Below, one piece after another: positions 1,664 to 36,135 of a stretch of 64,000 bases of DNA. Made by a program: the position numbers and the translations under genes. How positions within the stretch are numbered: the stretch's first letter is position 1; every line of letters starts with the position of its first letter. Under the pieces are notes generated by a model. The model searched no databases and was not told the DNA's origin. It was given only the letters and a program-made list of their open reading frames with translations. The DNA is taken from NCBI GenBank assembly GCA_028715175.1, contig JAQUSJ010000001.1:276550-340549 (forward strand). Reading direction: 5' to 3'. The stretch comes from Candidatus Daviesbacteria bacterium. GTDB taxonomy: Bacteria > Patescibacteriota > Microgenomatia > Daviesbacterales > UBA10151.

Positions 1664-3214
1664 ATGTCACTTAAGAATTGGATAAATTCAAATGGTGTAG
1701 TTTTAATTATTATTCTTATCTACTTTTTAATTTCCATAATAAAAATTGAACACCCGGGGGTTAATAATGACCAATTGATGTTTGTAAATACTGCAACTTT
1801 GCATCCTGACAATCAATTTTTATGGAAAAGCTGGCATGGGATACCGACGATGATCTTTCCTTATATTGGGGCTTTGAAGTCCTATTTTTACATGCCGATT
1901 TTTTATGTTTTTGGTGTGAATATCTGGTCTATCAGATTACCGCAAATTATCCTGATTTCCATTACCTGGATAATTCTTTACAAAGCATTGACGCTGGCTT
2001 TTAATAAGAAGTTAGCACTATTGACAATTTTACTTCTTAGTTTGGATCCCAGTATTATTATTTATTCAAAAACTGACCAGGGCCCGACTGTTTTAGAATT
2101 TTTCTTAAAAGTTTTGGCTGTTTATTTGTTATATCTTTTTATATCTACTAAAAAAAGTATTTATTATTTTAGCATCTACCTTATTTTGGCATTAGGAATT
2201 TTTAATAAATTAAATTTCATCTGGTTTGTGAATGCTTTCATGATTAGTTTCATAATTTTTTATTGGCGAATTTTTTATAACGATTTTAAAAAAGTGGATA
2301 AATTATTCCCATTTTTAATTTTCTGTATACCATATTTTTTCCTGATCAAAATATTTACTAAAATTTCCAGGGAAGTAGTATTAAGCTATAAGGATTTTAC
2401 CGATCCGGTTGCTTTATCCAATGTCTTTAATAATCTGTTAATTTTTTATAATAATTTAATAAACATTATCAATGGAAATATCTTTTATAATATAATCTAC
2501 GGGTACAGTCCAACACCTTTAGGCATTTATTTTAGCGGTTTAATTTTACTAATTTTGTTTATTGGCATCTATTATTTAATCGCTAAACATAAAGAACCTT
2601 TGAGACCATTCTATTTCTTTTCATCCCTTGTGTTATTAACTATCCTGCAACTTCTTTTGACAAAAAAGGCTATCTCTGTCTGGCACGCTTTATCTATTTA
2701 TCCTTTCTTTGTCGTAATTTTGGCTTTGGCAATCTTACAATTTAAAAAGAATATTTTTTTGGCTTTGGTTGGAATAATAATTTCTTATCAAATCATCGTG
2801 AATCTAATATATTTTGATACTTATTCCAAACCCACAAAATTAGTGGCTTATACATCAGCAATTTACGATTTGATTGATTTTGCCAAAGTTACAAAAGCAA
2901 ACTTTGTTTGTTTGGATGTTGATATTTGTAATCAACTATTAAGTTTTAATCAGGAAGTGAAAAAATACCAAGAGCCTTTCTTTTTCCTGGATCCGCCCAC
3001 ATACACCTATTCATTTATAAAATTAGCCGGAAATTTTAGCAGACCTGAAGAATTTTTATATGTAGCCCATGGAGATTCAAACTCGCATTTTCCAAATTTG
3101 AAAAAGGAATTCTTTAAATATCTGGATGATAATAAGATAAATTATAAAAAAGTTAAGGAGTTTAAAGATGGTGATATTAATATAGCCTTTGAAATTTACG
3201 AGGTTGGCAAATGA
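1664..3214 (+). CDS. Polytopic membrane protein, probable GT-C fold glycosyltransferase (ArnT/PMT_2-like)
   Basis: 516 aa, >10 hydrophobic helices. 'IRLPQIILISITWIILY' followed by 'LLSLDPSIIIYSKTDQGP' resembles the ArnT RLP / YSR loop arrangement. Stop overlaps the next start (ATGA). Confidence 0.45.
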   Translation: MSLKNWINSNGVVLIIILIYFLISIIKIEHPGVNNDQLMFVNTATLHPDNQFLWKSWHGIPTMIFPYIGALKSYFYMPIFYVFGVNIWSIRLPQIILISITWIILYKALTLAFNKKLALLTILLLSLDPSIIIYSKTDQGPTVLEFFLKVLAVYLLYLFISTKKSIYYFSIYLILALGIFNKLNFIWFVNAFMISFIIFYWRIFYNDFKKVDKLFPFLIFCIPYFFLIKIFTKISREVVLSYKDFTDPVALSNVFNNLLIFYNNLINIINGNIFYNIIYGYSPTPLGIYFSGLILLILFIGIYYLIAKHKEPLRPFYFFSSLVLLTILQLLLTKKAISVWHALSIYPFFVVILALAILQFKKNIFLALVGIIISYQIIVNLIYFDTYSKPTKLVAYTSAIYDLIDFAKVTKANFVCLDVDICNQLLSFNQEVKKYQEPFFFLDPPTYTYSFIKLAGNFSRPEEFLYVAHGDSNSHFPNLKKEFFKYLDDNKINYKKVKEFKDGDINIAFEIYEVGK

Positions 3215-5589: not shown

Positions 5590-7227
5590 TTAATCTACAT
5601 ACCCCCACATTGGATCGGTCAAATTAGTATTTGGTGTTTGGCAACTTTTTTGGATAGTTTCTTTTGGTGGAATTTTAGTTGGAGGAATTATTCCAATATG
5701 TCCAAATTTATATTTTACTTCTTTAGATAATTCTTCCGGGATGACAATGTTGTAAACAGGGACATCTATTGAAGGGTGCACAAGATGCAATTTATTTAAA
5801 TAGAAGAAGTACCGGAATCCGACGTTCTCTCCGGGCCTTGTTATATAGGTAATTCCGATACAAGGATAACCTTGGATTTTAACATCCTGCTCTATAAAAT
5901 TTGTTACTGCTTTGCGGTCTAAATACCCTATTTGATAAGGGTTTGAATTTACAAAAAATAAAATATTTTTAACTAAAATAAGTCCAAAAATAAAAACGGT
6001 TAAGCCTAGTCCCGGTTTTCCAGATTTTATTAAAAGAGCAAAAATCAAACTAACGATAGTTAATAATATAACTTCAAGATTTGCGAAATAATATTCAGAA
6101 ATTTGGGTACGGGAAAAAGAAAAGAATAATATAATACTTGCTAACCATATGAAAATTATTAAAACCTCCCTGATTTTTATTTGGCGATATTTAATAAGCA
6201 AAAAAACTGAAGAGAGTATTATAAATAAAAATGGCAGTCTTAAAGTTGAAGGTATCGATTGAGGAGATAAAAACAGGTTCTCGGTATTTTTAGAAATCAT
6301 TTCCAAAACTAACATTAATTTGCGCAAGCCAATTTCCCCTTCTTTTGTAGAGGATAAATTTATGAATAAACCCTGAGTTTGTATGAAGCGGTGTTTTACT
6401 TCAAATAATATAAGCGGTGAGGAGGTGATTAAGAGGGTTGTAAAAAATAGTATTGTTTGTTTTAAATTAGGTAGTTTACGGGCAAAAAATAAGGCAGCAG
6501 GAATTGCTAAAAGTGCAGGAAGCAGAGCTATGTGTATATGCCAAATTAATCCGATTAAAATTCCCAAAATAGGTAAAAGTGAAAAGTTCCCCCGGCTTAT
6601 CATTATTAGCGTATAGAAATACCAGATAGCCCAAAGTTTGGTTGGAAGTGTGGGAACTATCCATCGATCAAACCCTACGGTTGAAAGAAGTACTGCATGT
6701 AAAAAAGCTGCCAATATCCCGACTGTTTTATTAAATAATTTGGTTAAGATAAAATAATAACTTAGTATTGTTAAGACTCCTATTAAAACCCCAAGTCCAA
6801 AAACCCCAATAGGATCCATTTTTGATACTAAGAAAAAGGGGATCAATAAGTAATAAAACAAGCCTCCAATAAAGATACCGGGAACAGAAGTAAGCTGGCC
6901 AATCAAACGAAAATGGTGATTTACTACAATATCTTTAACAATCCAGGAATAAAGATCGCCGTCGTGAGCAAATTCAAACCGTTCGACTATTTTATAAGTT
7001 CTAAAAAATAATCCAATGATCAGGATAAAAATTAAGACGAGCAAGTACGGTTTTTTCTTAAAATATGAAATTACAGAGGACATACTTAATGATAGTAGCA
7101 GTTGCGATTTGAATGTGCAATTGACGCTTTGCGTCATCTCGCTCTTGTATCGGGATCCAAAAAAAATTATTATATGGGTCCCTGCTTTCGTAGGAATGAC
7201 AAAGGAGTAATATGTTAGTAAAAGCAA
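5590..7227 (-). CDS. GT-C glycosyltransferase, ArnT-like subfamily A paralog (true start probably at the Met near 7083)
   Basis: HDGDLYSWIVKDIVVNHHFRLIGQLTSVPGIFIGGLFYY.. and FDRWIVPTLPTKLWAIWYFY are collinear with 9039-10562 and the C-terminal half of 26812-28983. Polytopic membrane protein. Confidence 0.65.
   Translation of the reverse strand: MLLLTYYSFVIPTKAGTHIIIFFGSRYKSEMTQSVNCTFKSQLLLSLSMSSVISYFKKKPYLLVLIFILIIGLFFRTYKIVERFEFAHDGDLYSWIVKDIVVNHHFRLIGQLTSVPGIFIGGLFYYLLIPFFLVSKMDPIGVFGLGVLIGVLTILSYYFILTKLFNKTVGILAAFLHAVLLSTVGFDRWIVPTLPTKLWAIWYFYTLIMISRGNFSLLPILGILIGLIWHIHIALLPALLAIPAALFFARKLPNLKQTILFFTTLLITSSPLILFEVKHRFIQTQGLFINLSSTKEGEIGLRKLMLVLEMISKNTENLFLSPQSIPSTLRLPFLFIILSSVFLLIKYRQIKIREVLIIFIWLASIILFFSFSRTQISEYYFANLEVILLTIVSLIFALLIKSGKPGLGLTVFIFGLILVKNILFFVNSNPYQIGYLDRKAVTNFIEQDVKIQGYPCIGITYITRPGENVGFRYFFYLNKLHLVHPSIDVPVYNIVIPEELSKEVKYKFGHIGIIPPTKIPPKETIQKSCQTPNTNLTDPMWGYVD
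7175..7205 (+). promoter_or_regulatory. Conserved leader hairpin motif, copy 1: stem TCCCTGC / GTAGGAA, loop TTTC, followed by TGACAA and SD AGGAG
   Basis: Near-identical element at 18668-18698 (23/31 identities) with one compensatory C-G to U-A stem pair. Lies 7 nt upstream of the 7212 start. Confidence 0.4.
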
Positions 7228-9038: not shown

Positions 9039-10562
9039 GTGGTTTTTGTACAATTTTTCAATCACCAGATGCCAAAAATACCAAAACCCTTTATTTTATT
9101 TCTAATTATTGTCTTGTGTATTTTCATGCGCACATGGAGGTGTGAAGATTTCTACGGATTTGGACATGATCAGGATTTGTTTGCCTGGATAGCTAAAGAT
9201 ATTGTTATAGATAAACATATAAGACTGATTGGTCAGGAAACAAGTATAAGCGGTTTATTCATCGGTCCTATATTTTACTACTTAATTTCGCTGCCGCTTT
9301 TATTTTTTAATATGGACCCCCGGGTTGCTAATGTGGTTACGGTTGCAGTGAGTTTATTTACCGCACTAAGTTTCTATTTTGTGATATCAAAATTTTTTGG
9401 CAAGACAGCGGGTTTTATAACTTCATTTCTATATTCAGTTTCTTTAGGGATGGCTTTATTCGATCGTTGGGTAGTCCCGACTCAACCGACTCTACTTTGG
9501 TCAATCTGGTACCTTTATGTTTTGTTGTCTTTTTTAAAGAACAATTTTAAGGTGCTTCCTGTTTTAGCAATCCTGGTTGGTTTTATTTGGCATATCCATA
9601 TTGCCTTTGCGCCTTTGCTCCTGCTTTTACCATTAACGATATTTTTAAAACGGAAAGCAATTAGAAAAAGTAATTTTCACTTACAGTTTAAGAATATATT
9701 GTTATCGTCAGTTATCTTTTTTCTATTAATATCGCCTTTTTTGGTTTTTGAAGTACGCCATAATTTTCAGCAAATAAGAACTCTAACTCGCGTTGCATCT
9801 GAAGAAAGAGGAGATGTAAAAGGGGCAGCAAGGGTATTAAAAATAGCAAAATCTGCCGCTGTAATTTTTACCGGCGCTTTCTGGTATGACGAGAAACAGC
9901 AAAATTTACCACAAGAGATTTTTGTTATACCCTTGTTAGCTCTGTTTTTCTTTATATTTTTAGCCAGAAAAAAAGTATTTGATAAAGAGCAAGTATCAAT
10001 AATGACAGCATGGATGGGGATTGGATTAATAGGGCAATTTATTTCCAAAAGGCAAATCAGCGAATATTATCTGATTAACTTATTGGTAACTGTCTATCTT
10101 GCTTTTGCTCTTTTTATTGCGTATCTTTATAGTTTTAAAAAATTGCGGTTGCCGATAATTTTGCTTTTACTCTTCTATGCTTCTTTTAATATATTTTCTT
10201 TATTGAAACTACCCAAATTATATGATAATTACGGTGACCGCAAGAAGCTGATTGAATATATTAAAAAGGATGTACTTGCTCATAATTATCCTTGTATTGG
10301 CGTAAATTTTATTGCTGACCCCGGAGCGGGAGTGGGCTTTAGATACCTTTTTTGGCTAAATAAAATTCCTATTATTAAACCGGTTGCCGGTATTCCAGTA
10401 TACAATATCGCTATACCCTGGATTTATGCTTCGCCAAAAGAGCTAAGTTTTAAGCAAGGATATTTTGGAGTAATTATCCCTAAACCAATTGAAGTAAAAA
10501 ATCCAGGTTTATGTAATGACGTAAAAAACCAGTTTTTGCCTTTATCCGGATTTGTAAACTAA
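9039..10562 (+). CDS. GT-C glycosyltransferase, ArnT-like subfamily A paralog
   Basis: GHDQDLFAWIAKDIVIDKHIRLIGQETSISGLFIGPIFYY.. and FDRWVVPTQPTLLWSIWYLY, paralogous to 5590-7227. ~12 TM helices. Confidence 0.65.
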   Translation: MVFVQFFNHQMPKIPKPFILFLIIVLCIFMRTWRCEDFYGFGHDQDLFAWIAKDIVIDKHIRLIGQETSISGLFIGPIFYYLISLPLLFFNMDPRVANVVTVAVSLFTALSFYFVISKFFGKTAGFITSFLYSVSLGMALFDRWVVPTQPTLLWSIWYLYVLLSFLKNNFKVLPVLAILVGFIWHIHIAFAPLLLLLPLTIFLKRKAIRKSNFHLQFKNILLSSVIFFLLISPFLVFEVRHNFQQIRTLTRVASEERGDVKGAARVLKIAKSAAVIFTGAFWYDEKQQNLPQEIFVIPLLALFFFIFLARKKVFDKEQVSIMTAWMGIGLIGQFISKRQISEYYLINLLVTVYLAFALFIAYLYSFKKLRLPIILLLLFYASFNIFSLLKLPKLYDNYGDRKKLIEYIKKDVLAHNYPCIGVNFIADPGAGVGFRYLFWLNKIPIIKPVAGIPVYNIAIPWIYASPKELSFKQGYFGVIIPKPIEVKNPGLCNDVKNQFLPLSGFVN

Positions 10563-10563
10563 T

Positions 10564-12087
10564 ATGAAAAAAATAAAACCTCTCTGTTTGGTAATTACTT
10601 TACTGCTTATTTCCGGTGTCCTATACAGATTAACTTTGACCTATGGCGGGAATTTTCTTTTTAATATGGATAATGCCCGTGATATGGTTGATCTCCGGGA
10701 AATGATGGTTTTAGGTAAACTAAGACTGACAGGGCCCACTTCGGCAATTGAAGGGTTTTTTAATGGGCCTTTCTGGTATTATCTTTTGGCAATCCCTTTT
10801 AGTCTATCCGGCGGCGATCCGTATGCATCAATTCTGATGGAAATTGTCCTTTGGACAATAGGAGGATTTTTCCTTCTAAGGTTGATAAGCAGGTGGGGAA
10901 ATTGGTTAGTTTGGCCGATAGGCGCTTTGTGGATTGCCTCGGATTACATAGTACTCACTAATCTTTATGCATTTAATCCGAATCCGGTAGCATTGCTTGC
11001 TCCTTTATTTATTTATTTACTGGTTGAGTATTTGGATAAGAAAAAGACAATTTATGGAATTTACGTATGGATTCTAGCCGGGTTATTTTTTAATTTTGAG
11101 ATGAATTTTGGGATTTTTATACCGCCTATAATTTTGGCAAGCACAGTATTTACAGGTAATGCAAACTTGCTAAAACAAAAATGGTTTTGGGTAGGAGTTG
11201 CCGTGTTTGTCGCAACCTTACTACCGCAGGTAATTTTCGATTTGAAACATCAATTTATAATGAGTAAAGCACTGCTCCGGCATCTTTCGGAAAACAGTGA
11301 TATCGGTTTTAATATTGTAAAACGTCTTCAGATTATTTCAGAAAGTTTTTACAACACATTCCAGGCAACTCTCATGAATCACCAATTATTCACACGACTT
11401 ATCCTCGTATTTTTTATTCCGGTAATTTACTGGTTTCTAAAAGTAAAAAAGAAAGAAACGGTTGTTTGCGTAAGCTTTCTATTAATTTTTATTCCGTTTT
11501 TAGGTTACTTAATTTTGCCCGTTACAGTTAATCCCTGGCATCTTGGCGGGGAAATGACTGCGGCATTAATACTGGTAGGCTATTTACTAAAAAAACTTCT
11601 TATGGAAAAAAGTTTTGTAAGTAAAATCATTTCTGCTGCCCTTTTAGTTTCAATTATTTGGTTTGCGTTATTGAATATCGTTAGTTTTAACGGCTGGAGA
11701 GGGTCTAATTTTGACCCCTCGTTATATAAAAATGAAATTGCTGTTATAGATTATGTGTACAAAATAGCCAATGGAGTGAATTTTAAAGTTTACACATATC
11801 TTCCTTCAGTTTATGATTATCCGTATCAATATCTCTTTTGGTGGTATGGTCAAAAAAAATACGGATACATTCCCGGAGAATATGTTTATTCTCCCGATAA
11901 ACCGGTTTACATCCCCAGTCAGGAGAAGTTTCAGGGCTCAAAGAAAAATTTTTCCGGACTGGTATTTTTGATCAAAGAACCGGACAGGATTAAAATGAGA
12001 CAGGCTTGGGAAGGAGATTTTAAAGATATGGAATTTGTTTCAAAAGAGATGTTAGGATCAATAGAGATAGAGATTAGAAAAGAGTAG
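10564..12087 (+). CDS. GT-C glycosyltransferase, divergent ArnT-like subfamily A paralog
   Basis: NMDNARDMVDLREMMVLGKLRLTGPTSAIEGFFNGPFWYY collinear with the subfamily A loop. Polytopic. Start is 1 nt after the previous stop. Confidence 0.55.
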   Translation: MKKIKPLCLVITLLLISGVLYRLTLTYGGNFLFNMDNARDMVDLREMMVLGKLRLTGPTSAIEGFFNGPFWYYLLAIPFSLSGGDPYASILMEIVLWTIGGFFLLRLISRWGNWLVWPIGALWIASDYIVLTNLYAFNPNPVALLAPLFIYLLVEYLDKKKTIYGIYVWILAGLFFNFEMNFGIFIPPIILASTVFTGNANLLKQKWFWVGVAVFVATLLPQVIFDLKHQFIMSKALLRHLSENSDIGFNIVKRLQIISESFYNTFQATLMNHQLFTRLILVFFIPVIYWFLKVKKKETVVCVSFLLIFIPFLGYLILPVTVNPWHLGGEMTAALILVGYLLKKLLMEKSFVSKIISAALLVSIIWFALLNIVSFNGWRGSNFDPSLYKNEIAVIDYVYKIANGVNFKVYTYLPSVYDYPYQYLFWWYGQKKYGYIPGEYVYSPDKPVYIPSQEKFQGSKKNFSGLVFLIKEPDRIKMRQAWEGDFKDMEFVSKEMLGSIEIEIRKE

Positions 12088-12132: not shown

Positions 12133-12552
12133 TTATTTGATTAATATTCTTCGTTGATCGGCGTTGATGGTTTCAAAATAAATCCAGACAGTATTTTTTG
12201 GTAAAAAACTTTTAGCTTTTTCTGCCCATTCAATTAAGATGATACTGCTGGGGTCTGTTAAAATTTCATCCAGTCCCAATTGTTGTAAGTCTTCGATATT
12301 TTCTAAACGGTATAAATCAATATGGTAGAGAACTTTTGTAGTAGCCGGAATTTTGTGTTGTCGAATTAATACAAAAGTTGGGGAGATGATTTTTTCCGTA
12401 ATCCTAAGTCCTTTTGCAAAACCTTGGACGAAAATTGTTTTACCTGCTCCGAGTTCTCCTATTAAGGTAAAGATATGATTTTTGGTAGTTTTAGCAAATT
12501 TCTCTGCGATCTTTTTAGTTTCATCTTCGCCATGGGATATGTATTTTTGCAT
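12133..12552 (-). CDS. tsaE: tRNA t6A37 threonylcarbamoyladenosine biosynthesis ATPase TsaE (YjeE)
   Basis: 139 aa; Walker A GELGAGKT; SPTFVLI..YHIDLYRL region typical of TsaE. Confidence 0.8.
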   Translation of the reverse strand: MQKYISHGEDETKKIAEKFAKTTKNHIFTLIGELGAGKTIFVQGFAKGLRITEKIISPTFVLIRQHKIPATTKVLYHIDLYRLENIEDLQQLGLDEILTDPSSIILIEWAEKAKSFLPKNTVWIYFETINADQRRILIK

Positions 12553-13780
12553 TTTTCTTAAAGTAAATATAACCTATTGATCCGCATCCGGCAAATATCA
12601 AAGCCAATCCCAGCCAAACAATTGGGTTTATTTGTTTTTGATTTTTGACATTAACCGCTCCTTCCTCTGTGGCAGATTTTGCAGAGATAGTAGCCCCGGC
12701 AACTGATGCAATCTGATAAATTAGTTTATCAGAACTTCTTACCTGGCTTGAGGTAGTTGTTGTAGCTTTAACAGATGGCGTGGGTGAATTCGTTGTTGAG
12801 GGGAGACTATTTGATGTTGAGGTTGACGTGCTATCTTGATCACCATTTTCTGTAGAGGTAATTGTGATAGTTGATTCATTACTCCAAGTAGGGCTAGAGC
12901 CGGAAGATGTGTATCTTCCCACCTTAAAGATATAATCTCCGCTTCCTTTATAGTCAGTGTCTGAAGCATCAGGTTCGACTTCTAAAGTACCTGTCCAATT
13001 GCCGCTATCGTCAGTAGTAATCTTATATTGATTTAAATAATTAGAACTTTCATATTTAATCCAGCTGGAACCGATTTTTGTTAAACCAAAATATCTGGTG
13101 CCATCCACCCTCTTAAAAGCACCAGTCAAATAATAATCAGCATTTTTATTATTAGGTAAAGTTAGATTAACTGAAACATTAAAAGATTGGTCAGAATTTA
13201 TTTGGGAGGGGATATTGGAAATGGTGAATGAGGAAGTGGCTTGGGGAGTGGAGGAAGGTATAGGTGTTGGAGTTGGAGATGGAGTAGAGCTGGAAGTAGA
13301 TGACGGGGAAGAAGAAGGTTGCGCGATCGCTGTGATAGTTATTCCTGATGACGATTGAAAGCTAGTTCCACTTCCACATATTCCATCAGGTTTTTTTAAA
13401 CAGGCTCTTGCATAAATTATTTTTTGTCCCTCAGTAGCGTTACTTTTTATTTTACATTGGATAGAAAAACTAATAGTTGAATCGATTGCCGTAATGGTGG
13501 GCATGTCTGTCCAAGAATCTGTGTCATATAACCAGCTAGTAGTTAGTGGGTTATATGTTTGTCCTTCAAGTAGACTGGAAGATGATGCGCCTATTCTACA
13601 TTTAACAAAATATATCTCTCCTGTTTGTACGTTATTTAAGTTACTATTAGCTGAAAAAGATTGATTAATTGGAATCTCTGATTGATTAATCGTAGGAGCA
13701 TCTATACTTACGGCAGCAAAAACAGGTTTAACTCCAAAAAAGAGGAAAAGAAAAGTAAGAACTAGCGGTTTATTTCTCAC
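12521..13780 (-). CDS. Secreted Ser/Thr/Pro-rich cell-surface protein with C-terminal membrane anchor
   Basis: Signal peptide MRNKPLVLTFLFLFFGVKPVFAA. Linkers PSSSPSSTSSSTPSPTPTPIPSSTPQATSS and TSTSTSNSLPSTTNSPTPS. C-terminal hydrophobic helix plus basic tail (..LGLALIFAGCGSIGYIYFKKNAKIHIPWRR). Confidence 0.5.
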   Translation of the reverse strand: MRNKPLVLTFLFLFFGVKPVFAAVSIDAPTINQSEIPINQSFSANSNLNNVQTGEIYFVKCRIGASSSSLLEGQTYNPLTTSWLYDTDSWTDMPTITAIDSTISFSIQCKIKSNATEGQKIIYARACLKKPDGICGSGTSFQSSSGITITAIAQPSSSPSSTSSSTPSPTPTPIPSSTPQATSSFTISNIPSQINSDQSFNVSVNLTLPNNKNADYYLTGAFKRVDGTRYFGLTKIGSSWIKYESSNYLNQYKITTDDSGNWTGTLEVEPDASDTDYKGSGDYIFKVGRYTSSGSSPTWSNESTITITSTENGDQDSTSTSTSNSLPSTTNSPTPSVKATTTTSSQVRSSDKLIYQIASVAGATISAKSATEEGAVNVKNQKQINPIVWLGLALIFAGCGSIGYIYFKKNAKIHIPWRR

Positions 13781-16762: not shown

Positions 16763-17206
16763 CTACTTTATTTCTTCAACCTTACCGACATCCATTAACC
16801 AGCCTTCTTTAAGAGCCTTTTGGGTTTCACCGAAGACTTTCACTTTTTTGCCTTCATATTGGGAAAGATCAACAACAGATGAGGTAAGAGCTACAGGGAC
16901 CGCACTTTCTCTTATGAGCATGTGCGTTCCTTCTGTATATTCTCCTTTTGTGGGGAGAGGTTTGACTTTAATTATTCCTTCGGCGAAATCTTTAAAAGTT
17001 CTCGTATCTTGTTGGGCAGATTTTGGAGTTCCTACCGAAAGAGCAGATGGTTTTAAACTGCCGCCGCTTTTAGTTGACATAATATAACCGGTGAGAGTGC
17101 CAAGTATTAGTGCGGTGATAACTACACCTAAGATAAGACGGGTGGGATTTTCTGTGTCGGAGATTGGTTTGGCGATATGTTCTTGAAATTTTGTTTTAAG
17201 ATCCAT
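16763..17206 (-). CDS. Small membrane-anchored hypothetical protein (N-terminal TM, extracytoplasmic C-domain)
   Basis: 147 aa with a single hydrophobic helix RLILGVVITALILGTLTGYIM and no recognisable motifs. Sits upstream of ftsE in the same orientation. Confidence 0.4.
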   Translation of the reverse strand: MDLKTKFQEHIAKPISDTENPTRLILGVVITALILGTLTGYIMSTKSGGSLKPSALSVGTPKSAQQDTRTFKDFAEGIIKVKPLPTKGEYTEGTHMLIRESAVPVALTSSVVDLSQYEGKKVKVFGETQKALKEGWLMDVGKVEEIK

Positions 17207-18358: not shown

Positions 18359-18667
18359 TTGTTTATGACTCTTCACATTGATACCAAAGACCAAAAGAAA
18401 ATTAGGGTTTCGTTGAAAAAAGAGGGGAAAGTTATCAAGAGTTTGAGTGAGAAAAATGAATACGGTTCCCAAGTTCTTTTGCCCCTTATTATTAAATTAC
18501 TACGAGCTACAAACTACGAACTAAAAACTCTTCAAGGAATTGAGGTGGAAACTGGGCCAGGGTCTTTTACAGGATTGCGGGTAGGAGTTTCTGTGGCTAA
18601 TGCCCTAGGTTTTGCTTTAGGGATTCCTGTTAATGGAAAGAGGTTAGAAACAGAGTTAGTTTATTGA
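18359..18667 (+). CDS. tsaB: Truncated TsaB (YeaZ)-like t6A biosynthesis protein, N-terminal domain only (102 aa)
   Basis: ETGPGSFTGLRVGVSVANALGFALGIPV matches the TsaB/Kae1 family 'GPGSFTGLRIG' motif. Ends at TGA 18665-18667, far short of a ~230-aa TsaB. Confidence 0.6.
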   Translation: MFMTLHIDTKDQKKIRVSLKKEGKVIKSLSEKNEYGSQVLLPLIIKLLRATNYELKTLQGIEVETGPGSFTGLRVGVSVANALGFALGIPVNGKRLETELVY

Positions 18668-18698
18668 TTGGATTCCCGCTTTCGCGGGAATGACAATC
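18668..18698 (+). promoter_or_regulatory. Conserved leader hairpin motif, copy 2: stem TTCCCGC / GCGGGAA (7 bp, 5 GC pairs), loop TTTC, followed by TGACAA
   Basis: Paralogous to 7175-7205. Lies directly after the tsaB stop and upstream of the likely true start (ATG 18717) of the CAP-domain gene. Confidence 0.4.
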
Positions 18699-19589
18699 CC
18701 GTGCTATACTTTTAATATGGCTTGGCAAAATTGGTTCATTCCTCACAAAGACACTCACAAAAAAGCTCATCTTCTAAGTTGGGAAGGTTTAAGTATATAC
18801 ATACTGTTTTTTATTCTTTTACAGGTAGGTTTTTCAATTATAAATTACACAAAACCGGGAATTTTGGGGATTACTTCAGGTGTTGACCAGAAAAAACTTA
18901 TTGAATTGACTAATGTTGAAAGGCAAAAAGCAGGATTTTCGCCGGTTTTAGAAAATGATGCGCTTAATAAGGCAGCAGCACTTAAGGCCCAAAATATGTT
19001 TCAGGAAAATTATTGGGCTCATTTTTCCCCTTCAGGAAAAACTCCCTGGGATTTTATGTTGGGAACCGGATATAAATTCACTTTTGCCGGAGAAAATTTG
19101 GCGAAAAATTTTTATCAATCTGATGATGTAGTGAAAGCCTGGATGGCTTCACCAACACATAGAGATAATCTATTGAATCCGAAATATAAAGATATTGGTA
19201 TTGCTGTTGTAGACGGAGTACTTAATGGGCAAAAAACTACATTAGTAGTTCAAGAGTTTGGTACCACCCAAGACTTGGTGACAAATCCTTCGGTTTCCGT
19301 CCAAGGTAAACAATTTGCCGTATCTAAACAGGATTTTAATAAACCGCAGCTTCTAGTTTCTATTCCTGAGACTAAACAGAACATCAAAGTATTGGTAGAT
19401 CCTTATTCGGTATCCAGAGTGGCAGGCTTCACAATGGTAATTTCGATCTCGATACTATTAATGCTTGATGTTTGGATTCTTAAGAAAAGAGGAGTTTTCA
19501 GGGTTTCTTCTCATCACATTGCCCACATGGCGCTACTTTCTTTGGCAGCCGGTAGTTTGATTATGACAAGTCCAGGAGCCGTCTTATGA
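18690..19589 (+). CDS. CAP/SCP/PR-1 domain protein flanked by N- and C-terminal TM helices (more likely start 18717, MAWQNW)
   Basis: CAP motifs YWAHFSPSGKTPWDFM, GENLAKNF, AWMASPTHRDNLLNPKYKDIGIAVV. The ORF-track start at 18690 lies inside the leader hairpin. Confidence 0.7.
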   Translation: MTIPCYTFNMAWQNWFIPHKDTHKKAHLLSWEGLSIYILFFILLQVGFSIINYTKPGILGITSGVDQKKLIELTNVERQKAGFSPVLENDALNKAAALKAQNMFQENYWAHFSPSGKTPWDFMLGTGYKFTFAGENLAKNFYQSDDVVKAWMASPTHRDNLLNPKYKDIGIAVVDGVLNGQKTTLVVQEFGTTQDLVTNPSVSVQGKQFAVSKQDFNKPQLLVSIPETKQNIKVLVDPYSVSRVAGFTMVISISILLMLDVWILKKRGVFRVSSHHIAHMALLSLAAGSLIMTSPGAVL

Positions 19590-26760: not shown

Positions 26761-26811
26761 ACTTACTTAAATCATAGCAGAAGTTTAAGAGATTATGCTA
26801 CACTTTAATTC

Positions 26812-28983
26812 ATGAATATAGCCGGACTATCAGTCTTTTTTCCTTGCATTAACGAAGAAGGAAGTATTGAACATATTGTGCGTAAAGCAGAACAGGTCCT
26901 GAAAAAATTAAACCTCAAACACGAAATTATTGTTGTTGACGATGGTTCAACCGACCGGACCGGCCAAATTGCAGATAAAATGGCCCGGGAAAATTCTAAT
27001 ATAAGGGTTATCCATCATCTTAAAAATTTAGGTTATGGAGAAGCCTTAAAATCCGGTTTCTACAGCGCAAAATATGACATTATTGTTTATACCGACGGAG
27101 ACGGTCAGTTTGATTTTTCGGAAGTGGAAAAGTTTTTGGAAAAAATCCGGTACAATGACGCGATTTTCGGGTATAGAATAAAGCGGAAAGACCCGTTTTT
27201 TAGAATACTTTTTAAAAAAGGTTGGAAGCTGTCGCTTTTAACTTTCTTTGGTTTGACTCTAAAAGACGTGGACTGCGGTTTTAAAATGGTTCGAAAAGAA
27301 GTTTTAGAAAAAATACCTCATTTACAATCTTCAAGAGGGGCGATGATAAATGCGGAGCTTGCCATTTTGGTTCAAAAATACGGTTTCAGAATTGCGGAGG
27401 TTGGGGTAAACCATTATCCCAGAATTTCAGGTAAGCCTACAGGAGCAAATTTGAATGTAATTTTCAAGTCCTATATTGATTTATTGCAACTTTGGTGGAA
27501 GTTTAAAGACGCTAAAAGCTTGTTTTTGCTGTTCATCGGGATTTTGATACTTGCGTCTTTTCTGCGTTTTTACAAGCTCGGAGAATATATGACTTTTTTA
27601 GGAGACGAGGGCAGGGATGCCATAGTTATTAAAAATATGCTTATTAATCATCACTTTCCATTGATTGGTCCGCCTACCTCCGTGGGTAATATTTATTTAG
27701 GTCCGCTTTATTATTATATGATGGCTCTCCCTATGCTGATTTTTTCTCTTAGTCCGGTGTCAGCTGCCGGAATGAATGCTTTTTTTGGTGTAATGAGTGT
27801 AATCTTTATTTATTATCTTGGTAAAAGCTGGTTTAACCGGCAGGCGGCTCTCCTGGCAGCCTATTTATATGCCATTTCTCCCGTAACAATTATCTACTCC
27901 AGGTCTTCATGGAACCCTAATCCGGCCCCGTTTTTTGCCCTAAGTTCAATATTTAGTTTGTATAAGCTATTTAAGACAGGTAACTTTTTGTGGCTTATTT
28001 TAACCGGTCTCTCGGTTGGAGCGGCTTTGCAGATGCATTATCTTGCTGTGATTTTAATACCTGTTGTGGTCGTCCTCTGGTTTTATGAAATTTTCAGAAG
28101 GCGTTACAAAAAGTTAAAAATCGAAAAATTGTTTGGTGGAAGTTTATTAGGGATAGCTTCGTTTTTATTTATCATGTCACCCCTTGTTTGGTTCGATCTC
28201 CGGCATAATTTTTTAAACTATAGAGCTATAACAGAACTTTTTAGTTCCGGCAATGCAATTAAGGCCGATCTTGTTGCAAATATTTTAAAGATACCCTCTC
28301 TTTATTCGTACAATTTAATTGGAAGATATATCGGAGGAGAGAATTCTTATCTAACGGTAATTGTATCTTTATTGGTTATTGTCGCACTGGTATATAGATT
28401 TTCGTACTGGCCTAAACTTGCTTTAGCCGTATGGTTGATAGTGGGTCTTCTCGGGCTTACCTTTTATCAACAGAGTATTTATGATCATTATTTGGGGTTT
28501 TTAAATCCTGTTCCGTTTTTGCTTTTAGGGTCCCTAGCTTCAATCCGTATTCCTAAACGGAAGGTGGTAAGATGGTTTATGGTTTCTGTCCTGGTGGTGT
28601 TGACGGTATTTCTAACAATAGTCAACTTTCAAAAAAATCCTCTGCGCAATCCGCCAAATAATCAACTGAAAAGAACTCAAGAAATAGCAAAGTTTATTAT
28701 CAGTCAGGCAAATGGTAAAGATTTTAATTTTGCCTTAATTGCTGAAAGAAATTATGATTCGGCATACCAATTTTATCTTGATATATATGGTCATAAGCCA
28801 AAACAAGTGCCTTTTGATATAACAGAAGAACTATTTGTTGTCTGCGAAGATTCTACATGTGACCCAACTCACAGTGCAAAGTATGAAATTGCCGCCTTTG
28901 GCTGGTCAAAAATTGAATGGATGCAAAATCTTTACGGGGTAAAGATATATAAATTAGTACACAACCCGTCAGGGAAACCATGA
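26812..28983 (+). CDS. Fusion protein: N-terminal GT2 Dpm1-like polyprenyl-phosphate glycosyltransferase + C-terminal ArnT-like GT-C (subfamily A) membrane transferase
   Basis: aa 1-230: LSVFFPCINEEGSIEHIV..VVDDGSTDRT..YTDGDGQFD (GT2). aa ~240-723: LGDEGRDAIVIKNMLINHHFPLIGPPTSVGNIYLGPLYYY.. collinear with 5590-7227 and 9039-10562. 723 aa. Confidence 0.7.
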   Translation: MNIAGLSVFFPCINEEGSIEHIVRKAEQVLKKLNLKHEIIVVDDGSTDRTGQIADKMARENSNIRVIHHLKNLGYGEALKSGFYSAKYDIIVYTDGDGQFDFSEVEKFLEKIRYNDAIFGYRIKRKDPFFRILFKKGWKLSLLTFFGLTLKDVDCGFKMVRKEVLEKIPHLQSSRGAMINAELAILVQKYGFRIAEVGVNHYPRISGKPTGANLNVIFKSYIDLLQLWWKFKDAKSLFLLFIGILILASFLRFYKLGEYMTFLGDEGRDAIVIKNMLINHHFPLIGPPTSVGNIYLGPLYYYMMALPMLIFSLSPVSAAGMNAFFGVMSVIFIYYLGKSWFNRQAALLAAYLYAISPVTIIYSRSSWNPNPAPFFALSSIFSLYKLFKTGNFLWLILTGLSVGAALQMHYLAVILIPVVVVLWFYEIFRRRYKKLKIEKLFGGSLLGIASFLFIMSPLVWFDLRHNFLNYRAITELFSSGNAIKADLVANILKIPSLYSYNLIGRYIGGENSYLTVIVSLLVIVALVYRFSYWPKLALAVWLIVGLLGLTFYQQSIYDHYLGFLNPVPFLLLGSLASIRIPKRKVVRWFMVSVLVVLTVFLTIVNFQKNPLRNPPNNQLKRTQEIAKFIISQANGKDFNFALIAERNYDSAYQFYLDIYGHKPKQVPFDITEELFVVCEDSTCDPTHSAKYEIAAFGWSKIEWMQNLYGVKIYKLVHNPSGKP

Positions 28984-29754: not shown

Positions 29755-31278
29755 GTGGATTTTTTAGTTAAACGTCGCAGAGGAATTTTAATCCTCATTG
29801 CCTTAATTGCTGTGTATTTTATTCTTAGACTGCCGAATTTGACTTTGCAGCCTATCTTTGCAGATGAGGCGATTTATATCAGATGGGCGCAAGTGATGAG
29901 AGCTGAATCAACCCTGCGTTTTCTGCCTTTATCCGATGGGAAAACCCCGCTTTTTATGTGGGCTATGATTCCTCTTTTCAAATTTATCCACGATCCGCTT
30001 CTGGCAGGAAGAGTTCTTTCTGTGATCTCCGGTTTTTTTACTTTGCTTGGGGTATTTTTCCTATCCAGGAAAATCTATAATACACGGACCGCATTTTGGG
30101 CAAGTTTATTGTATGTGATTACTCCTTATACTGTATTTTTTGACCGGATGGCTCTGGTTGATTCAATGCTGGCTGCTTTTACTGTCTGGTCGGTTTATTT
30201 TGCCGTCTGGCTGGTAAGTAGTTTGAGATTAGATATTGCCATGATCTTAGGTTATTTGTTGGGAGGTGGTATCTTAACAAAAACACCGGGTATGTTTAAT
30301 CTGCTTGTATTGCCTATAACAATAATAGGATTTATTAGAAGAAAGGGAGGAAAAAATGCGCTGATTAAGTTAATAGCCTTATGGGGTGTTGCGATCGGAA
30401 TTGCGCTGGCTATGTATAACATGTTGCGACTCGGGCCAAATTTTCAAATGTTATCTTCAAGGAATATGGATTATATTTTTTCTCCAATGGAGTTAATCGG
30501 CAGACCCTTGGACCCGTTCATCCCCCATTTCAATGATATCGCCGATTGGTTCCCCAAACTTCTAACCTGGCCAATTTTATTTTGTGTTGTGATGGGAATG
30601 ATTTACATAATATACATGATATGGCAACAAATGTTCCGCGGGCCGTCTTTGTTGGGAGGGATAATTTTGCTTTGGGCGCTCATTCCGTTGCTTTTGAATA
30701 TGGCATTTTTGCGAACTTTTACTGCCCGTTATCTTTTTCCTTCGATTCCATTATTTTTGGTGATAGCCGGATTTGGAGCAACAAAAATACTACCGAGGCT
30801 TGCATATATAAGACGCTTCCCTATTCTTCTGATGTTGATAGTTCTTTTGCCTCTTCCATTATATTTTGATTTTTTCTTATTAACTTCGCCCGGGAAGGTG
30901 CCGCTTCCCAAGGAGGAGAGAAAGGGGTATTTTGAAGATTGGACTTCCGGGTATGGATTTTCCGATATCGCAAAGTTTCTTTTGGAGAAAAGTAGAGATA
31001 AAAAGGTTGTTCTTGGAACAGCCGGTTCTTTCGGAACATTGCCTGACGGGATTCAAATTTATCTTGATAAATCAAAAATATCAATAGTAACCAGCAGCGC
31101 TACTATTTCGGCGCAGGTCAGAAATGCCGCAAAAGATAACCTTACCTACTTTATTGGAAACAAACGGGATTTGGAAGGCAGCGCCAGCGATATTGTGCTG
31201 ATAAAAGAATACCCAAAATTGAAGCCATTAGATAATTCCTTGCAAGATGCTACAGTTTTATATCAAGTGCTGCCTTAA
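29755..31278 (+). CDS. ArnT-like GT-C glycosyltransferase (GT83-type motif)
   Basis: First extracytoplasmic loop PIFADEAIYIRWAQVMRAE matches the ArnT 'DExRYxExxxxM' motif. RVLSVISGFFTLLGVFFL and ITPYTVFFDRM follow the second ArnT motif. 507 aa, polytopic. Confidence 0.7.
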   Translation: MDFLVKRRRGILILIALIAVYFILRLPNLTLQPIFADEAIYIRWAQVMRAESTLRFLPLSDGKTPLFMWAMIPLFKFIHDPLLAGRVLSVISGFFTLLGVFFLSRKIYNTRTAFWASLLYVITPYTVFFDRMALVDSMLAAFTVWSVYFAVWLVSSLRLDIAMILGYLLGGGILTKTPGMFNLLVLPITIIGFIRRKGGKNALIKLIALWGVAIGIALAMYNMLRLGPNFQMLSSRNMDYIFSPMELIGRPLDPFIPHFNDIADWFPKLLTWPILFCVVMGMIYIIYMIWQQMFRGPSLLGGIILLWALIPLLLNMAFLRTFTARYLFPSIPLFLVIAGFGATKILPRLAYIRRFPILLMLIVLLPLPLYFDFFLLTSPGKVPLPKEERKGYFEDWTSGYGFSDIAKFLLEKSRDKKVVLGTAGSFGTLPDGIQIYLDKSKISIVTSSATISAQVRNAAKDNLTYFIGNKRDLEGSASDIVLIKEYPKLKPLDNSLQDATVLYQVLP

Positions 31279-31290
31279 TCTTTAAAATTT

Positions 31291-32952
31291 ATGAAAAAAG
31301 CCTTAGTGATTTTTTTCTTTTTAAGTTTTATAACCCTTCCGACTATTTTGCCCTTTTTGTCACTCAAATTTTTTTATACCCAGGATTATATTTTTATAGC
31401 CAGACTGCAACAGATGAGTTCAGCGCTATTTTCCGGCCAATTTCCTGTCAGATGGGTGCCGGATTTAAGATACGGCGAACCTCTTTTTAATTTTTATGCG
31501 CCCCTGCCCTATTACTTGGGGGCAATAATTAAACTGACAGGATTAAATTTTATCTGGGTTGCAAAAATATTATTTATATCCAGCAGTATTTTATCGGCTG
31601 TGACAATGTATATCTTATGTCGCAAACTCTTTAATCGCAAAGCTGCAATCTTAGCGGTTTTTCTTTATACTTATGCTCCTTACAGGGCAGTTGATATTTA
31701 TGTCCGGGGAGCATTATCAGAAGCTTGGGCTTTTGTATTTTTCCCGCTGATTTTTTATGCCTCTCTGCTTTTATCTGAAAAATCGAGCATAAAGAGGATT
31801 TTACTTCTTGTTTTTTCTTTAGCAGGATTATTTTTAACTCATAATGTTGCAACTTTAATGTTTTTACCGTCCCTTTTTTTGTGGTGGATATATCTTGTAT
31901 TAACAAAAAGAAACTGGAAATTAATTTTCCCTAATTTAACCGCTTTAGGTTTAAGTTTAGGCTTAGCCGCATTTTTCCTGCTTCCGGCTTTATTAGAACG
32001 GCAATTTATTCAAACAAAATATTTGATAGTCGGTTATTTTGATTTTCGTGCTCATTTTGTGGCTTTCTCTCAATTTTTTTCAACATTTTGGGGATACGGA
32101 TCCTCGCTTTGGGGACGAGATGATGGTTTATCATTCCAGATAGGACTTATTCACTGGGCCGTTCTTGCATTGGCTTTATTTTTAGGACTCTTCCTTATAA
32201 GGAATAAGCACAATTTCGTTGCCAATAAAAAGTTTTTAATATTTTTGTTATTTCTGGGAGTTAATTTTTTACTCTCTTTATTTTTGCAACATAACAAATC
32301 TGCATTCATCTGGGAAGCAATTCCTGCTATGGCTTTTATTCAATTCCCCTGGAGATTTTTAGCAATCTCAATTTTCTTCGTTGCAATAATTGGCGCAGCA
32401 TTAACAAGTTATTTTCAGGATAAGTTTAAACTGGTATATTTTATTTTGATCATTGCCGTAGTTGTTGCAAACTTTGGATATTTTAGGCCTAAGGAATATG
32501 TTGATGATAGTTTCTTTGATAAATTTTTAAATATAGAGACTATGCGGAAAGGGGTAGATTTGACAAAGGACTATCTACCGATTTGGGTTGCTACTACTGA
32601 TGGTGAAAGGTTCAATACTCCACAAGCAGAAAAGGGTGAAATTACAGTTTCTTCCTTTAAACAAAGTTCAATAAGATTTAATTTTGATGCTAAAGTTTCC
32701 TCAAACGCTTTGATTGACATACCTATTACATATTTCCCCGGTTGGCAAGTTCAAGCAAATAACCAGTTAATCTCTCAAAGCTCTCCTTCGAAAATGGGGC
32801 TTATCAGGTTCGAACTTCCAAAAGGGAGCTATGCAATTAATATTGAGTTCAAAGATACTCCCATAAGAACTATAGGAAATATTATTTCATTTGTTTCGGC
32901 AGTAGCGATTTCGATGTTGTTTCTTTTTAGAAAGAAATATTTAAATGTATAA
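31291..32952 (+). CDS. YfhO-like GT-C family membrane glycosyltransferase
   Basis: FPVRWVPDLRYGEPLFNFYAPLPYY loop; ~13 TM helices; C-terminal extracytoplasmic domain (PITYFPGWQVQANNQ). Paralog of 32945-34654 and 55325-57007. Confidence 0.55.
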   Translation: MKKALVIFFFLSFITLPTILPFLSLKFFYTQDYIFIARLQQMSSALFSGQFPVRWVPDLRYGEPLFNFYAPLPYYLGAIIKLTGLNFIWVAKILFISSSILSAVTMYILCRKLFNRKAAILAVFLYTYAPYRAVDIYVRGALSEAWAFVFFPLIFYASLLLSEKSSIKRILLLVFSLAGLFLTHNVATLMFLPSLFLWWIYLVLTKRNWKLIFPNLTALGLSLGLAAFFLLPALLERQFIQTKYLIVGYFDFRAHFVAFSQFFSTFWGYGSSLWGRDDGLSFQIGLIHWAVLALALFLGLFLIRNKHNFVANKKFLIFLLFLGVNFLLSLFLQHNKSAFIWEAIPAMAFIQFPWRFLAISIFFVAIIGAALTSYFQDKFKLVYFILIIAVVVANFGYFRPKEYVDDSFFDKFLNIETMRKGVDLTKDYLPIWVATTDGERFNTPQAEKGEITVSSFKQSSIRFNFDAKVSSNALIDIPITYFPGWQVQANNQLISQSSPSKMGLIRFELPKGSYAINIEFKDTPIRTIGNIISFVSAVAISMLFLFRKKYLNV

Positions 32953-34654: not shown

Positions 34655-36135
34655 AGACTATGGATGAAAGCGTTGAACAGATTGATCCGACTAAAGAGCT
34701 GACTACGGAAATTATTAAAACGCGAGCTGTTAAAGGCGCCGCAATTTTGACTGGAAGAATGGTTCTAATGCAGGGAATATCCTTTTTTTCAATGGCTCTT
34801 TTGACAGCCTTTCTTTCCCCGGCAGAATTCGGGGTTTATTTTGTCGTGTCGGCAGTTAAGAATTTCCTGGCTTATTTTGGCGATATTGGTTTTGCTCCGG
34901 CTTTAATCCAGAAACAAGAGAAGCCAACCGATCTTGAATTAAAAACTATATTTACTGCCCAACAGCTGCTTATTTTAATATTATTGGGAATAGGTTTTCT
35001 GCTTACTTTTTTAATACAAAATATTTATAATTTAAATCAGGCAGCAATTTATTTATTTTGGGCACTTCTTTTTTCTTTGTTTTTTTCATCGTTAAAAACG
35101 ATTCCTACTGTTTTACTGGAGAGAAAGTTAGAATTTAATAAATGGGTAATTCCGCAAATCATTGAAAATATAATTTTTAATTTAACAGCCGTAACTTTGG
35201 CCTGGAAAGGATTCGGAGTCACAAGCTATACTGTTGCCGTACTTTTATCCGGTTTCATAGGTCTTTTCGTTACATATATAGTTCAGCCCTGGCTTCCCGG
35301 AATTGCATTTTCGGTTAAATCTTTTAAGTCAATATTAAAGTTTGGCATCCCCTATCAAGCAAATACACTTCTTGCGATGGTGAAAGATGACGGTATGACG
35401 CTTTTTTTAGGAGGGGTATTAGGTCCTTCCGGTGTCGGATTTTTGGGGTGGGCTCAGAAATGGGCTTATGCGCCACTCCGGTTTTTTATGGATCAGGTAA
35501 TCAAGGTGACTTTTCCGGCTTTTTCAAGATTGCAGGATAACAGAAAAGACTTGTCAGACTTAGTTTCGAAGTCTATTTTTTTCATCTGTATTTTGGTTTT
35601 TCCATCTCTCGTGATGCTGGTTCTGGTGACACCCAGTTTAGTGCAGGTAATACCAAAGTATATTAAATGGAGTCCTGCCGTTTTTGCGCTTTCGGTTTTA
35701 ACAATAAATTCCGGTTTGGCAGCAATAACCACTCCATTGACGAATACTCTGAATGCTATCGGCAAAATAACTCTGACTTTTAAGTTGATGATTATGTGGA
35801 CTATATTAACTTGGATTTTTGTTCCAGCGCTTGCTGTGCTTTATGGGGTTAATGGCGCAGCCGTAGGGTTTGCTATTGTCGGATTAAGCTCTGTTATAGC
35901 TTTATATCTGGTTTCAAAACATGTTGATATAAACTATTTGCAAAGTGTTGGAAAACCGGTTCTCGCGTCAATTTTCATGGGAATTTGCGTATTTATTATC
36001 AGTAGTCTTTTTTCCGTGTCTTGGCAGCAGATAATAGGTATGGTTGTTGCAGGTTTGATTTCCTATTCTTTGACTATTTTTATGCTTGAACCAAAGCTGC
36101 CGCTTTTAATTAAAAATCAATTCAGAAGAAAATAA
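34621..36135 (+). CDS. Wzx-like oligosaccharide flippase (MOP/polysaccharide biosynthesis protein family)
   Basis: 504 aa, ~14 TM helices. N-terminal KGAAILTGRMVLMQGISFFSMALLTAFLSPAEFGVYFVV pattern of Wzx/PST flippases. Confidence 0.65.
   Translation: MDVILQEKNELKTMDESVEQIDPTKELTTEIIKTRAVKGAAILTGRMVLMQGISFFSMALLTAFLSPAEFGVYFVVSAVKNFLAYFGDIGFAPALIQKQEKPTDLELKTIFTAQQLLILILLGIGFLLTFLIQNIYNLNQAAIYLFWALLFSLFFSSLKTIPTVLLERKLEFNKWVIPQIIENIIFNLTAVTLAWKGFGVTSYTVAVLLSGFIGLFVTYIVQPWLPGIAFSVKSFKSILKFGIPYQANTLLAMVKDDGMTLFLGGVLGPSGVGFLGWAQKWAYAPLRFFMDQVIKVTFPAFSRLQDNRKDLSDLVSKSIFFICILVFPSLVMLVLVTPSLVQVIPKYIKWSPAVFALSVLTINSGLAAITTPLTNTLNAIGKITLTFKLMIMWTILTWIFVPALAVLYGVNGAAVGFAIVGLSSVIALYLVSKHVDINYLQSVGKPVLASIFMGICVFIISSLFSVSWQQIIGMVVAGLISYSLTIFMLEPKLPLLIKNQFRRK

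Follow-up and report, generated by a model that had tools for sequence, protein, structure and literature searches.

Two related elements in short spacers of a Daviesbacteria contig

The window analysed here, a 64-kb stretch of the Candidatus Daviesbacteria contig JAQUSJ010000001.1, carries two similar short elements, copy 1 (TGGGTCCCTGCTTTCGTAGGAATGACAA) and copy 2 (TGGATTCCCGCTTTCGCGGGAATGACAA), which we identify below as copies of a known dispersed DNA repeat. Copy 1 precedes a plus-strand F420_ligase/CofE-like gene with its ATG at 7212 (site 1), and copy 2 lies between a tsaB-like gene and a plus-strand CAP-domain gene (site 2); coordinates are collected in Table 1. A first-pass annotation had described the pair as a conserved 5'-leader RNA hairpin. 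Both elements lie upstream of these genes as that annotation stated, although the second starts at 18669, one base later than originally assigned. Aligned in register the copies are identical at 23/28 positions, or at 23/31 if the comparison is extended by 3 nt. When up to three mismatches were allowed, a degenerate pattern matched only these two sites in the 64 kb, on both strands, and had no match in 100 dinucleotide-preserving shuffles of the window, which bears out the earlier view that the similarity is not due to chance.

Read on the minus strand, copy 2 has the form T-TGTC-ATTCCCGC-GAAA-GCGGGAAT-CCA-A, with a perfect 8-bp stem and a loop that reads TTTC on the plus strand. Its predicted RNA fold has an energy of -18 kcal/mol (z -4.1 and -4.4 for the two strands, relative to shuffles) and its fold as single-stranded DNA (ssDNA) one of -12.3 kcal/mol (z -5.0). 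Copy 1 (T-TGTC-ATTCCTAC-GAAA-GCAGGGAC-CCA) keeps the stem length and loop. The compensated change from C-G to T-A at stem position 5, to which the first-pass annotation had drawn attention, is real, but three other changes in copy 1 are uncompensated (C.A for T-A, and two G.T for A-T and G-C), and on the minus strand they amount to two mismatches and one G.T pair. Copy 1 folds no better than shuffled sequence, either as plus-strand RNA (z -0.78) or as minus-strand DNA (-0.2 kcal/mol, z +1.27).

With Rfam 15 there were no matches in the window at gathering thresholds and only chance-level ones around the two sites at E values up to 10; a tRNA scan of the sequence and a literature search with peptide translations of the motif also gave no match. 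A terminator role for the hairpin was rejected as no run of T follows the main hairpin, and a terminator-like prediction at 18683-18703 was set aside as a weaker alternative pairing.

The elements match the CGTC-1 REP/dRS3/NTS family

Judged by their sequence, both elements correspond, on the opposite strand, to a dispersed DNA repeat that has been described under the names CGTC-1 REP, dRS3, NTS and SRM (Ssn-related motif). The CGTC-1 family of tagged REPs was described by Di Nocera et al. (2013) and corresponds to dRS3 in Neisseria and to RPE-6 in Rickettsia conorii (PMC3733652). The Neisseria Transformation Sequence (NTS), with the consensus CGTCATTCCCGCGMAVGCGGGAATCYRG, is an extended and oriented form of about half of the dRS3 copies (Chenal et al., 2025; PMC11893778). 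It is bound, as ssDNA only and in one orientation only, by the small GIY-YIG protein SsnA, which cuts just upstream of it and is reported not to bind RNA (PMC11893778).

The minus strand of copy 2 (TGTCATTCCCGCGAAAGCGGGAATCCAA) agrees with the NTS consensus at 26/28 positions and copy 1 agrees at 21/28, counted by eye. The C directly after the palindrome is the base most important for SsnA binding, and the three bases before the palindrome are those most important for cleavage (PMC11893778); both this C and the preceding GTC are retained in each copy. Copy 2 further resembles NTS/SRM units in its ATTCCC...GGGAAT palindrome and in its G-A-A-A loop, which lies within the allowed GMAV, and the copies are intergenic, with units often paired, as is the case for NTS/SRM. 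It differs from NTS in having the tag TGTC and the tail CCAA, where NTS has CGTC and CYRG. Very low copy number in Daviesbacteria is a further difference, as is the host, a bacterium of the candidate phyla radiation (CPR), a group absent from the main text of PMC11893778.

CGTC-1 REPs carry the tag CGTC (variants TGTC and CCTC), an 8-bp stem with A-T residues in its first and second positions, a 4-nt loop and a short unpaired 3' CCA. Both copies have the TGTC tag on the minus strand, a variant explicitly described for the family; copy 2 has the full stem, beginning A-T and T-A, and the 4-nt loop; and the CCA tail is present in copies 1 and 2 and in a putative third unit described below. Location between co-directional genes near an upstream stop codon, and inverted dimers, are likewise shared with CGTC-1. 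On the other hand that family was described chiefly in alpha- and beta-proteobacteria, where copies number from tens to hundreds, whereas there are few here in a small CPR genome, and site 1, unlike most CGTC-1 sites, lies between divergent genes, a rarer class. GTAG-tagged REPs, REPINs and BIMEs offer a broader parallel, being short tagged hairpins that form inverted doublets, spread through intergenic regions and have their single-stranded hairpin recognised by a small dedicated enzyme. Their tag is GTAG rather than CGTC/TGTC, and that enzyme (RAYT, TnpA-REP) is a Y1 HUH transposase and not a GIY-YIG nuclease.

Copy 1 is a decayed member of the family. It differs by three substitutions from TGTCATTCCTGCGAAAGCAGGAATCCA, the type of unit found in the Daviesbacteria locus L150, and scores 33 bits against a covariance model of the family (R1, described below), against 45.8 bits (E 2.7e-10) for copy 2; both copies were in the seed of that model. 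Apart from these seed copies and the opposite-strand palindromic core of copy 2, the best R1 match in the window falls next to copy 1, at 7132-7159. Its score alone is weak (10.8 bits, E about 1.2), and it faces copy 1 with the tags outward and the tails facing across a 15-nt spacer. Clear dimers in two other Daviesbacteria loci (L150 and L133) have a similar geometry, with spacers of 13-14 nt. This sequence is probably a degenerate inverted partner of copy 1. It resembles the 5-nt-loop type (CGTC-2-like), so that the pair would be a heterodimer.

Pairing is conserved across the family

Scanning of viral contigs with GTCATTCCNGCNNNNGCNGGAATCC gave at least 148 distinct instances. In 147 of the 148 listed, the two bases of the free stem pair are complementary (C-G in 112, G-C in 26, T-A in seven and A-T in two). 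Across the 148, GTC is preceded by C in 78 and by T in 63; the loop has the form G-N-A-R, and the tail reads CCAG. A metagenome scan for the subtype with a GAAA loop and TGTC tag gave at least 129 instances, with a complementary free pair in 124 of the 129 listed. The contigs carrying the listed matches ranged in GC content from 32 to 72% (viral) and from 30 to 70% (metagenome).

The covariance model R1 was built from 70 units and found 190 in 676 kb of scanned loci. In the resulting alignment, which was fitted to the model and whose units were largely chosen by pattern, 98.9% of cells are paired and four of the eight pairs show double-sided changes; none of 500 shuffles matched the observed pairing percentage, the number of cells with double-sided changes or the covariation score. 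The hairpin is thus under selection for pairing at the level of the family, as had been proposed from the two copies alone, and is probably selected as ssDNA. The earlier suggestion of a protein-binding hairpin comes close to the published role of the repeat.

Two stems, TCCCGC/GCGGGA and TCCTGC/GCAGGA, are standard in subfamilies of the repeat. Because T-A is among the family-wide stem variants, the T-A pair of copy 1 is a trait of the TCCTGC/GCAGGA subfamily, and the compensated change between the two copies, which had been taken for covariation in place, reflects these two standard stems.

Inverted pairs are frequent, and in the sample examined the arrangement with tags outward was the commonest (75, compared with 25 and 23 for the others). 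In 82 sampled instances between co-directional genes, defined with crude gene calls, the NTS strand coincided with the coding strand 48 times and with the antisense strand 34 times. Since both orientations occur despite an asymmetric tag, loop and tail, a strand-specific role as RNA is disfavoured and recognition at the DNA level is favoured.

Genes for GIY-YIG proteins (PF01541) adjoin the motif in four of the scanned loci (L003, L054, L117 and L161). In L161 (1042-1454) such a gene (1072-1362) lies between one unit at 1042-1069 and two at 1378-1405 and 1427-1454, a layout that reproduces the published NTS-ssnA-NTS order. In L054 (922-1263) the stop-to-stop open reading frame (ORF) of the GIY-YIG gene crosses a unit, which is translated as SFPRRRESS.

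Both copies are missing from the orthologous spacers of relatives

For comparison we used 39 loci (670 kb) retrieved by means of the FtsX protein of the window, nearly all of them from Candidatus Daviesbacteria (Microgenomates, CPR) and with conserved gene order. One of these, L121 (JAQTPP010000001.1, isolate STB_119), aligns collinearly with the window, with identities of 89-97% depending on the segment. By blastn and alignment, neither copy is present in its orthologous spacers, and both are missing from those of about 30 other syntenic Daviesbacteria (spacers compared across 35 relatives); a single distant relative, L150, has a copy in the tsaB-CAP spacer. Presence in the window and absence from close and distant syntenic relatives indicate lineage-specific insertion into two short spacers. 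That copy 2 is perfect, in a genome about 3-11% different from that of a relative without it, suggests recent gain.

The search for further copies with a covariance model, which the first-pass annotation had advised, found two clear units and one weak one in the window and about seven units in the 670 kb of relatives. The tsaB-CAP spacer of L150 contains a dimer whose 4-nt-loop unit has the orientation of the window copy; in L133 a dimer separates a 154-aa ORF from ftsE, and L132 has a weak unit. L154 (4590-4642) has a long-loop variant, TGTCATCCCTGC...CGGGGATCCAGGAGG, whose tail CCAGGAGG doubles as the Shine-Dalgarno (SD) sequence of the next gene; the product of that gene starts MARITVEDCLKQVPNR and may be RpoZ-like. 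In L143, site 1 carries another kind of tagged element, GACACTCT-AGCGAAAGT-AAGAGTGTC and then TGTCATCCTGAGGAGCCATGAAGGCGACGAAGGATC, inserted between the -10-like box of the CofE-like gene and its ATG and with the tag on the coding strand.

Many of the GTDB records among these loci are titled 'uncultured Gammaproteobacteria bacterium' (one 'Deltaproteobacteria bacterium'), which look like mislabels (L124, L126, L127, L129, L131, L135-L139, L145, L147, L153 and L154). The FtsX proteins they encode are 66-82% identical to that of the window, and most share the Daviesbacteria gene order.

The insertions lie at or beside promoter-like sequences

At site 1 the relatives have the arrangement TTGAAT-17-TG.TA.ACT followed, after 7-10 nt, by the ATG of the CofE-like gene. 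The window keeps TTGAAT and the next 8 nt, after which the inserted block begins; the 23 bp of L121 that it replaces comprise the -10-like box (TGATAGACT) and the short spacer before the ATG. An AAGGAG directly after copy 1 gives the CofE-like gene an SD-containing upstream region. In an alternative alignment, window GGGATCCAAAAAAAATTA is paired with L121 GAGATCCATGAAAATTA, and the insertion would then fall just within the gene, past its old start. We prefer the first because the N-terminus MLVK in the window fits the M-[IK]-[IV]-K of the relatives, and under either alignment L121 is without a unit here. Scanning for promoters gave no consensus sigma-70 match at site 1; one candidate, TTGTAT-17-TATTAT (7145-7173), was below the scan threshold and is speculative only.

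At site 2, L121 reads ...CTACTAG-TGA-TATACTTTCTTTAATG and the window ...TTATTGA-TTGGATTCCCGCTTTCGCGGGAATGACAATCCCG-TGC-TATACTTTTAATATG. Copy 2 lies 1-5 nt past the tsaB-like stop codon, the hairpin beginning 5 nt past it, and there is no evident target-site duplication. Alignment with the relatives places the true start of the CAP-domain gene at 18717, and not at the ATG at 18690 inside the element. A TGnTATACT box stands at the same distance from this start in nearly all relatives, often overlapping the last tsaB codons, and TGnTATACT-N6-ATG would constitute a leaderless-type promoter. Transcription starts some 7 nt after a -10 hexamer in standard promoter geometry. As the -10-like box lies downstream of the repeat, this geometry would put copy 2 upstream of the CAP transcript, and probably outside any leader.

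Boxes of the form TGnTAnACT lying 5-10 nt before a start occur in two strict cases in the window (18702-18719 and 26796-26814), both before long ORFs; for ORFs of at least 80 aa, 0.0 such cases are expected. About 30 Daviesbacteria (L121-L157) share such boxes ahead of their CofE-like and CAP genes. These patterns suggest that the genes concerned have leaderless or near-leaderless transcripts.

The tsaB-CAP spacer is a hot spot for insertion among the relatives. Genes for four-helix-bundle proteins of the 23S_rRNA_IVP family occupy it in opposite orientations in L134 (7000-7362, minus strand) and L153 (4723-5109, plus strand; Pfam E 1e-11 and 1e-23, respectively). In L122 and L141 the spacer is taken up by AT-rich tandem repeats, while L126 and L157 have a GGTACC...GGTAC palindrome there. 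As these inserts are unrelated, the repeated use of the spacer probably reflects tolerance and not targeting. The TsaB-like protein encoded upstream (18359-18667) has 102 aa and matches positions 30-84 of the 264-position TsaD profile; its length is equal in essentially all relatives, and it is therefore a conserved short form and not the result of truncation by the repeat.

Table 1. Repeat units, inserted blocks and promoter-like sequences at the two sites.
Feature	Position	Strand	Description
-35-like hexamer	7109-7114	+	TTGAAT, common to relatives; putatively separated from its gene in the window by the inserted block
Site 1 block	7123-7211	.	89 bp; repeat pair and AAGGAG (7202-7207); in place of 23 bp of L121
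Putative partner of copy 1	7132-7159	+	Degenerate inverted unit, CGTC-ATCTCGCT-CTTGT-ATCGGGAT-CCA, 5-nt-loop type
Copy 1	7175-7202	-	Decayed unit, TCCTGC/GCAGGA subfamily
Site 2 block	18668-18701	.	34 bp, TTGGATTCCCGCTTTCGCGGGAATGACAATCCCG; missing from relatives; between tsaB-like TGA (18665-18667) and CAP -10-like box
Copy 2	18669-18696	-	Intact CGTC-1 REP / NTS-like Ssn-related motif
Copy 2, tag	18695-18692	-	TGTC
Copy 2, first stem arm	18691-18684	-	ATTCCCGC
Copy 2, loop	18683-18680	-	GAAA
Copy 2, second stem arm	18679-18672	-	GCGGGAAT
Copy 2, tail	18671-18669	-	CCA
Extended -10-like box and CAP start	18702-18719	+	TGC-TATACT-TTTAAT-ATG, box 6 nt before the start; downstream of the repeat; probable leaderless-type arrangement by promoter geometry

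A dispersed repeat carried at two sites

We consider it likely that both elements are copies of the CGTC-tagged REP family 1 on the minus strand, linked to ssDNA hairpins and Ssn proteins, and that they are passengers at these two sites. The unit consists of an unpaired YGTC tag, an 8-bp stem starting A-T and T-A, a G-N-A-R loop and a CCA tail, and by analogy with the published NTS its hairpin would matter while the minus strand is in single-stranded form. A small Ssn-family GIY-YIG nuclease (cd10448), predicted to be encoded elsewhere in the genome, would bind the hairpin and cleave a few nucleotides upstream of the tag. This pairing of nuclease and repeat, or a linked copying process based on ssDNA, would spread and maintain the repeats, while at both sites the copies would have side effects at most. 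The site 1 block would have displaced the leaderless-type promoter of the CofE-like gene and left an SD-containing leader; copy 2 sits between the tsaB-like stop codon and the CAP -10-like box.

Four points weigh against this interpretation. The published SRM string, HGTCWYN(0-2)YYVSBRHN(0-5)WNVSBRGN(0-2)RNCYNB, has no strict match in the window; copy 2 fits it except at the last base (A where B is required) and copy 1 fails, and we regard the string as narrow because the clear L150 unit fails as well. Copy number in this lineage is low compared with the hundreds of copies in Neisseria or sphingomonads. The literature gives no established copying process for these repeats. Finally, no Ssn or GIY-YIG gene was found in the window or in the 670 kb of the 39 Daviesbacteria loci, a result uninformative either way since these amount to less than one genome-equivalent and the profile was home-made. 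The SsnA-like genes were sought with regular expressions, with phmmer, and with a hidden Markov model built from real hits; the best GIY-YIG match in the window (38331-38498, E 0.05) was rejected because it lies inside a 1162-aa ORF. A profile search of a protein database with four real Ssn-like proteins returned at least 8000 matches, of which the best named among those listed were all from sphingomonads or Planctomycetaceae, and is uninformative on the CPR.

The low copy number, the decay of copy 1 and its partner and the lack of a GIY-YIG gene in the sequence covered would also suit a history in which the genome lost, or never had, the cognate nuclease or mobilising enzyme, so that the copies are inert relics of past activity or recombination. 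This is possible, but we think it doubtful: copy 2, a perfect consensus unit, stands in a genome about 3-11% different from that of a relative without it, intact dimers occur in other Daviesbacteria, and the enzyme search covered less than one genome-equivalent.

That the repeats have RNA-level activity at these sites, whether as side effects or as exapted functions, seems to us unlikely. If transcribed with tsaB, the strong hairpin of copy 2, which is predicted to fold as RNA on either strand and lies 1-5 nt after the stop codon, could stabilise the 3' end or hinder termination, and at site 1 the insert would give the CofE-like gene a new SD-containing leader, the AAGGAG after copy 1 contrasting with the leaderless-type arrangement in relatives. 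E. coli REPs near stop codons reportedly affect 3' stability or termination, in work by Liang, Rudd and Deutscher from 2015. Di Nocera et al. (PMC3733652) argue that REPs are often located directly after ORFs and that these are probably transcribed. However, close relatives have the same genes without the elements, so that any such role would be recent and dispensable; copy 1 folds no better than shuffles; the sampled family has no orientation bias relative to transcription; and SsnA is reported not to bind RNA (PMC11893778).

CPR bacteria are thought to depend on DNA uptake. We have little confidence in a bolder proposal, that NTS-like repeats are active in the CPR as an Ssn-type system for ssDNA restriction or control of recombination and that their insertions rewire expression; in a weaker form they would spread in these small genomes without a cognate Ssn gene. 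Were it true, insertions at or beside leaderless-type promoters would alter the expression of the genes concerned; at site 1, for instance, an SD-led transcript would have taken the place of a leaderless one for the CofE-like gene.

A dedicated and selected cis-regulatory 5'-leader RNA hairpin common to the two genes, CofE-like and CAP (whether riboregulator, processing site or target of an RNA-binding protein), as the first-pass annotation had it, accords with the sense-strand position of both copies just upstream of plus-strand genes, with the one compensated pair and with the imperfect pairs of copy 1, which are G.U on the plus strand and make it slightly better as plus-strand RNA than on the minus strand, but is highly improbable, being largely refuted by the lack of the element in L121 and in the orthologous leaders of about 30 relatives, and at odds with the occurrence of the same 28-mer in contigs whose GC content spans 30-72%, in contexts of every sort and in both orientations, with its position upstream of the conserved -10-like box that lies 6 nt before the CAP ATG, and with the absence of a significant copy 1 fold or an Rfam match.

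What appeared to be a shared regulatory leader with a compensatory change is a dispersed repeat, for which a riboregulator annotation would be wrong. Elements of this kind are already known and were recently characterised; what is new is the host lineage and the clean comparison of filled and empty sites. Our literature search found no report linking CGTC-REP or NTS-like repeats to CPR bacteria. A Daviesbacteria genome has a unit nearly identical to the NTS of Neisseria, gained after its divergence from a relative that is about 89-97% identical. This widens the known distribution of the SRM family, and the two sites form a clean before-and-after pair for insertion into very short, promoter-bearing spacers of compact genomes.

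Other features of the window

GC skew is positive in every 4-kb bin of the window (1-64000) and most genes are on the plus strand, which is therefore likely to be the leading strand. In both units the NTS strand is the minus strand and would be the leading-strand template; an argument from replication strand was dropped, two units being too few to carry it.

Many paralogous membrane proteins of about 500-560 aa are encoded in the window (1664-3214, 5590-7083 on the minus strand, 9039-12087, 29755-32952, 42175-43833, 49687-51354, 55325-57007 on the minus strand, 60216-61847, and neighbours). About ten were scanned, and most of these match PMT_2/PMT (GT39/GT83-like glycosyltransferases) or PTPS_related. 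There is no Pfam match for a 1162-aa multi-pass membrane protein (36135-39623) or for two smaller conserved proteins (12521-13780 and 16763-17206, both on the minus strand). The membrane paralogues sit amid genes for sugar-nucleotide epimerases/dehydratases, nucleotidyl-transferases and Polysacc_synt proteins, forming a very large surface-glycosylation region.

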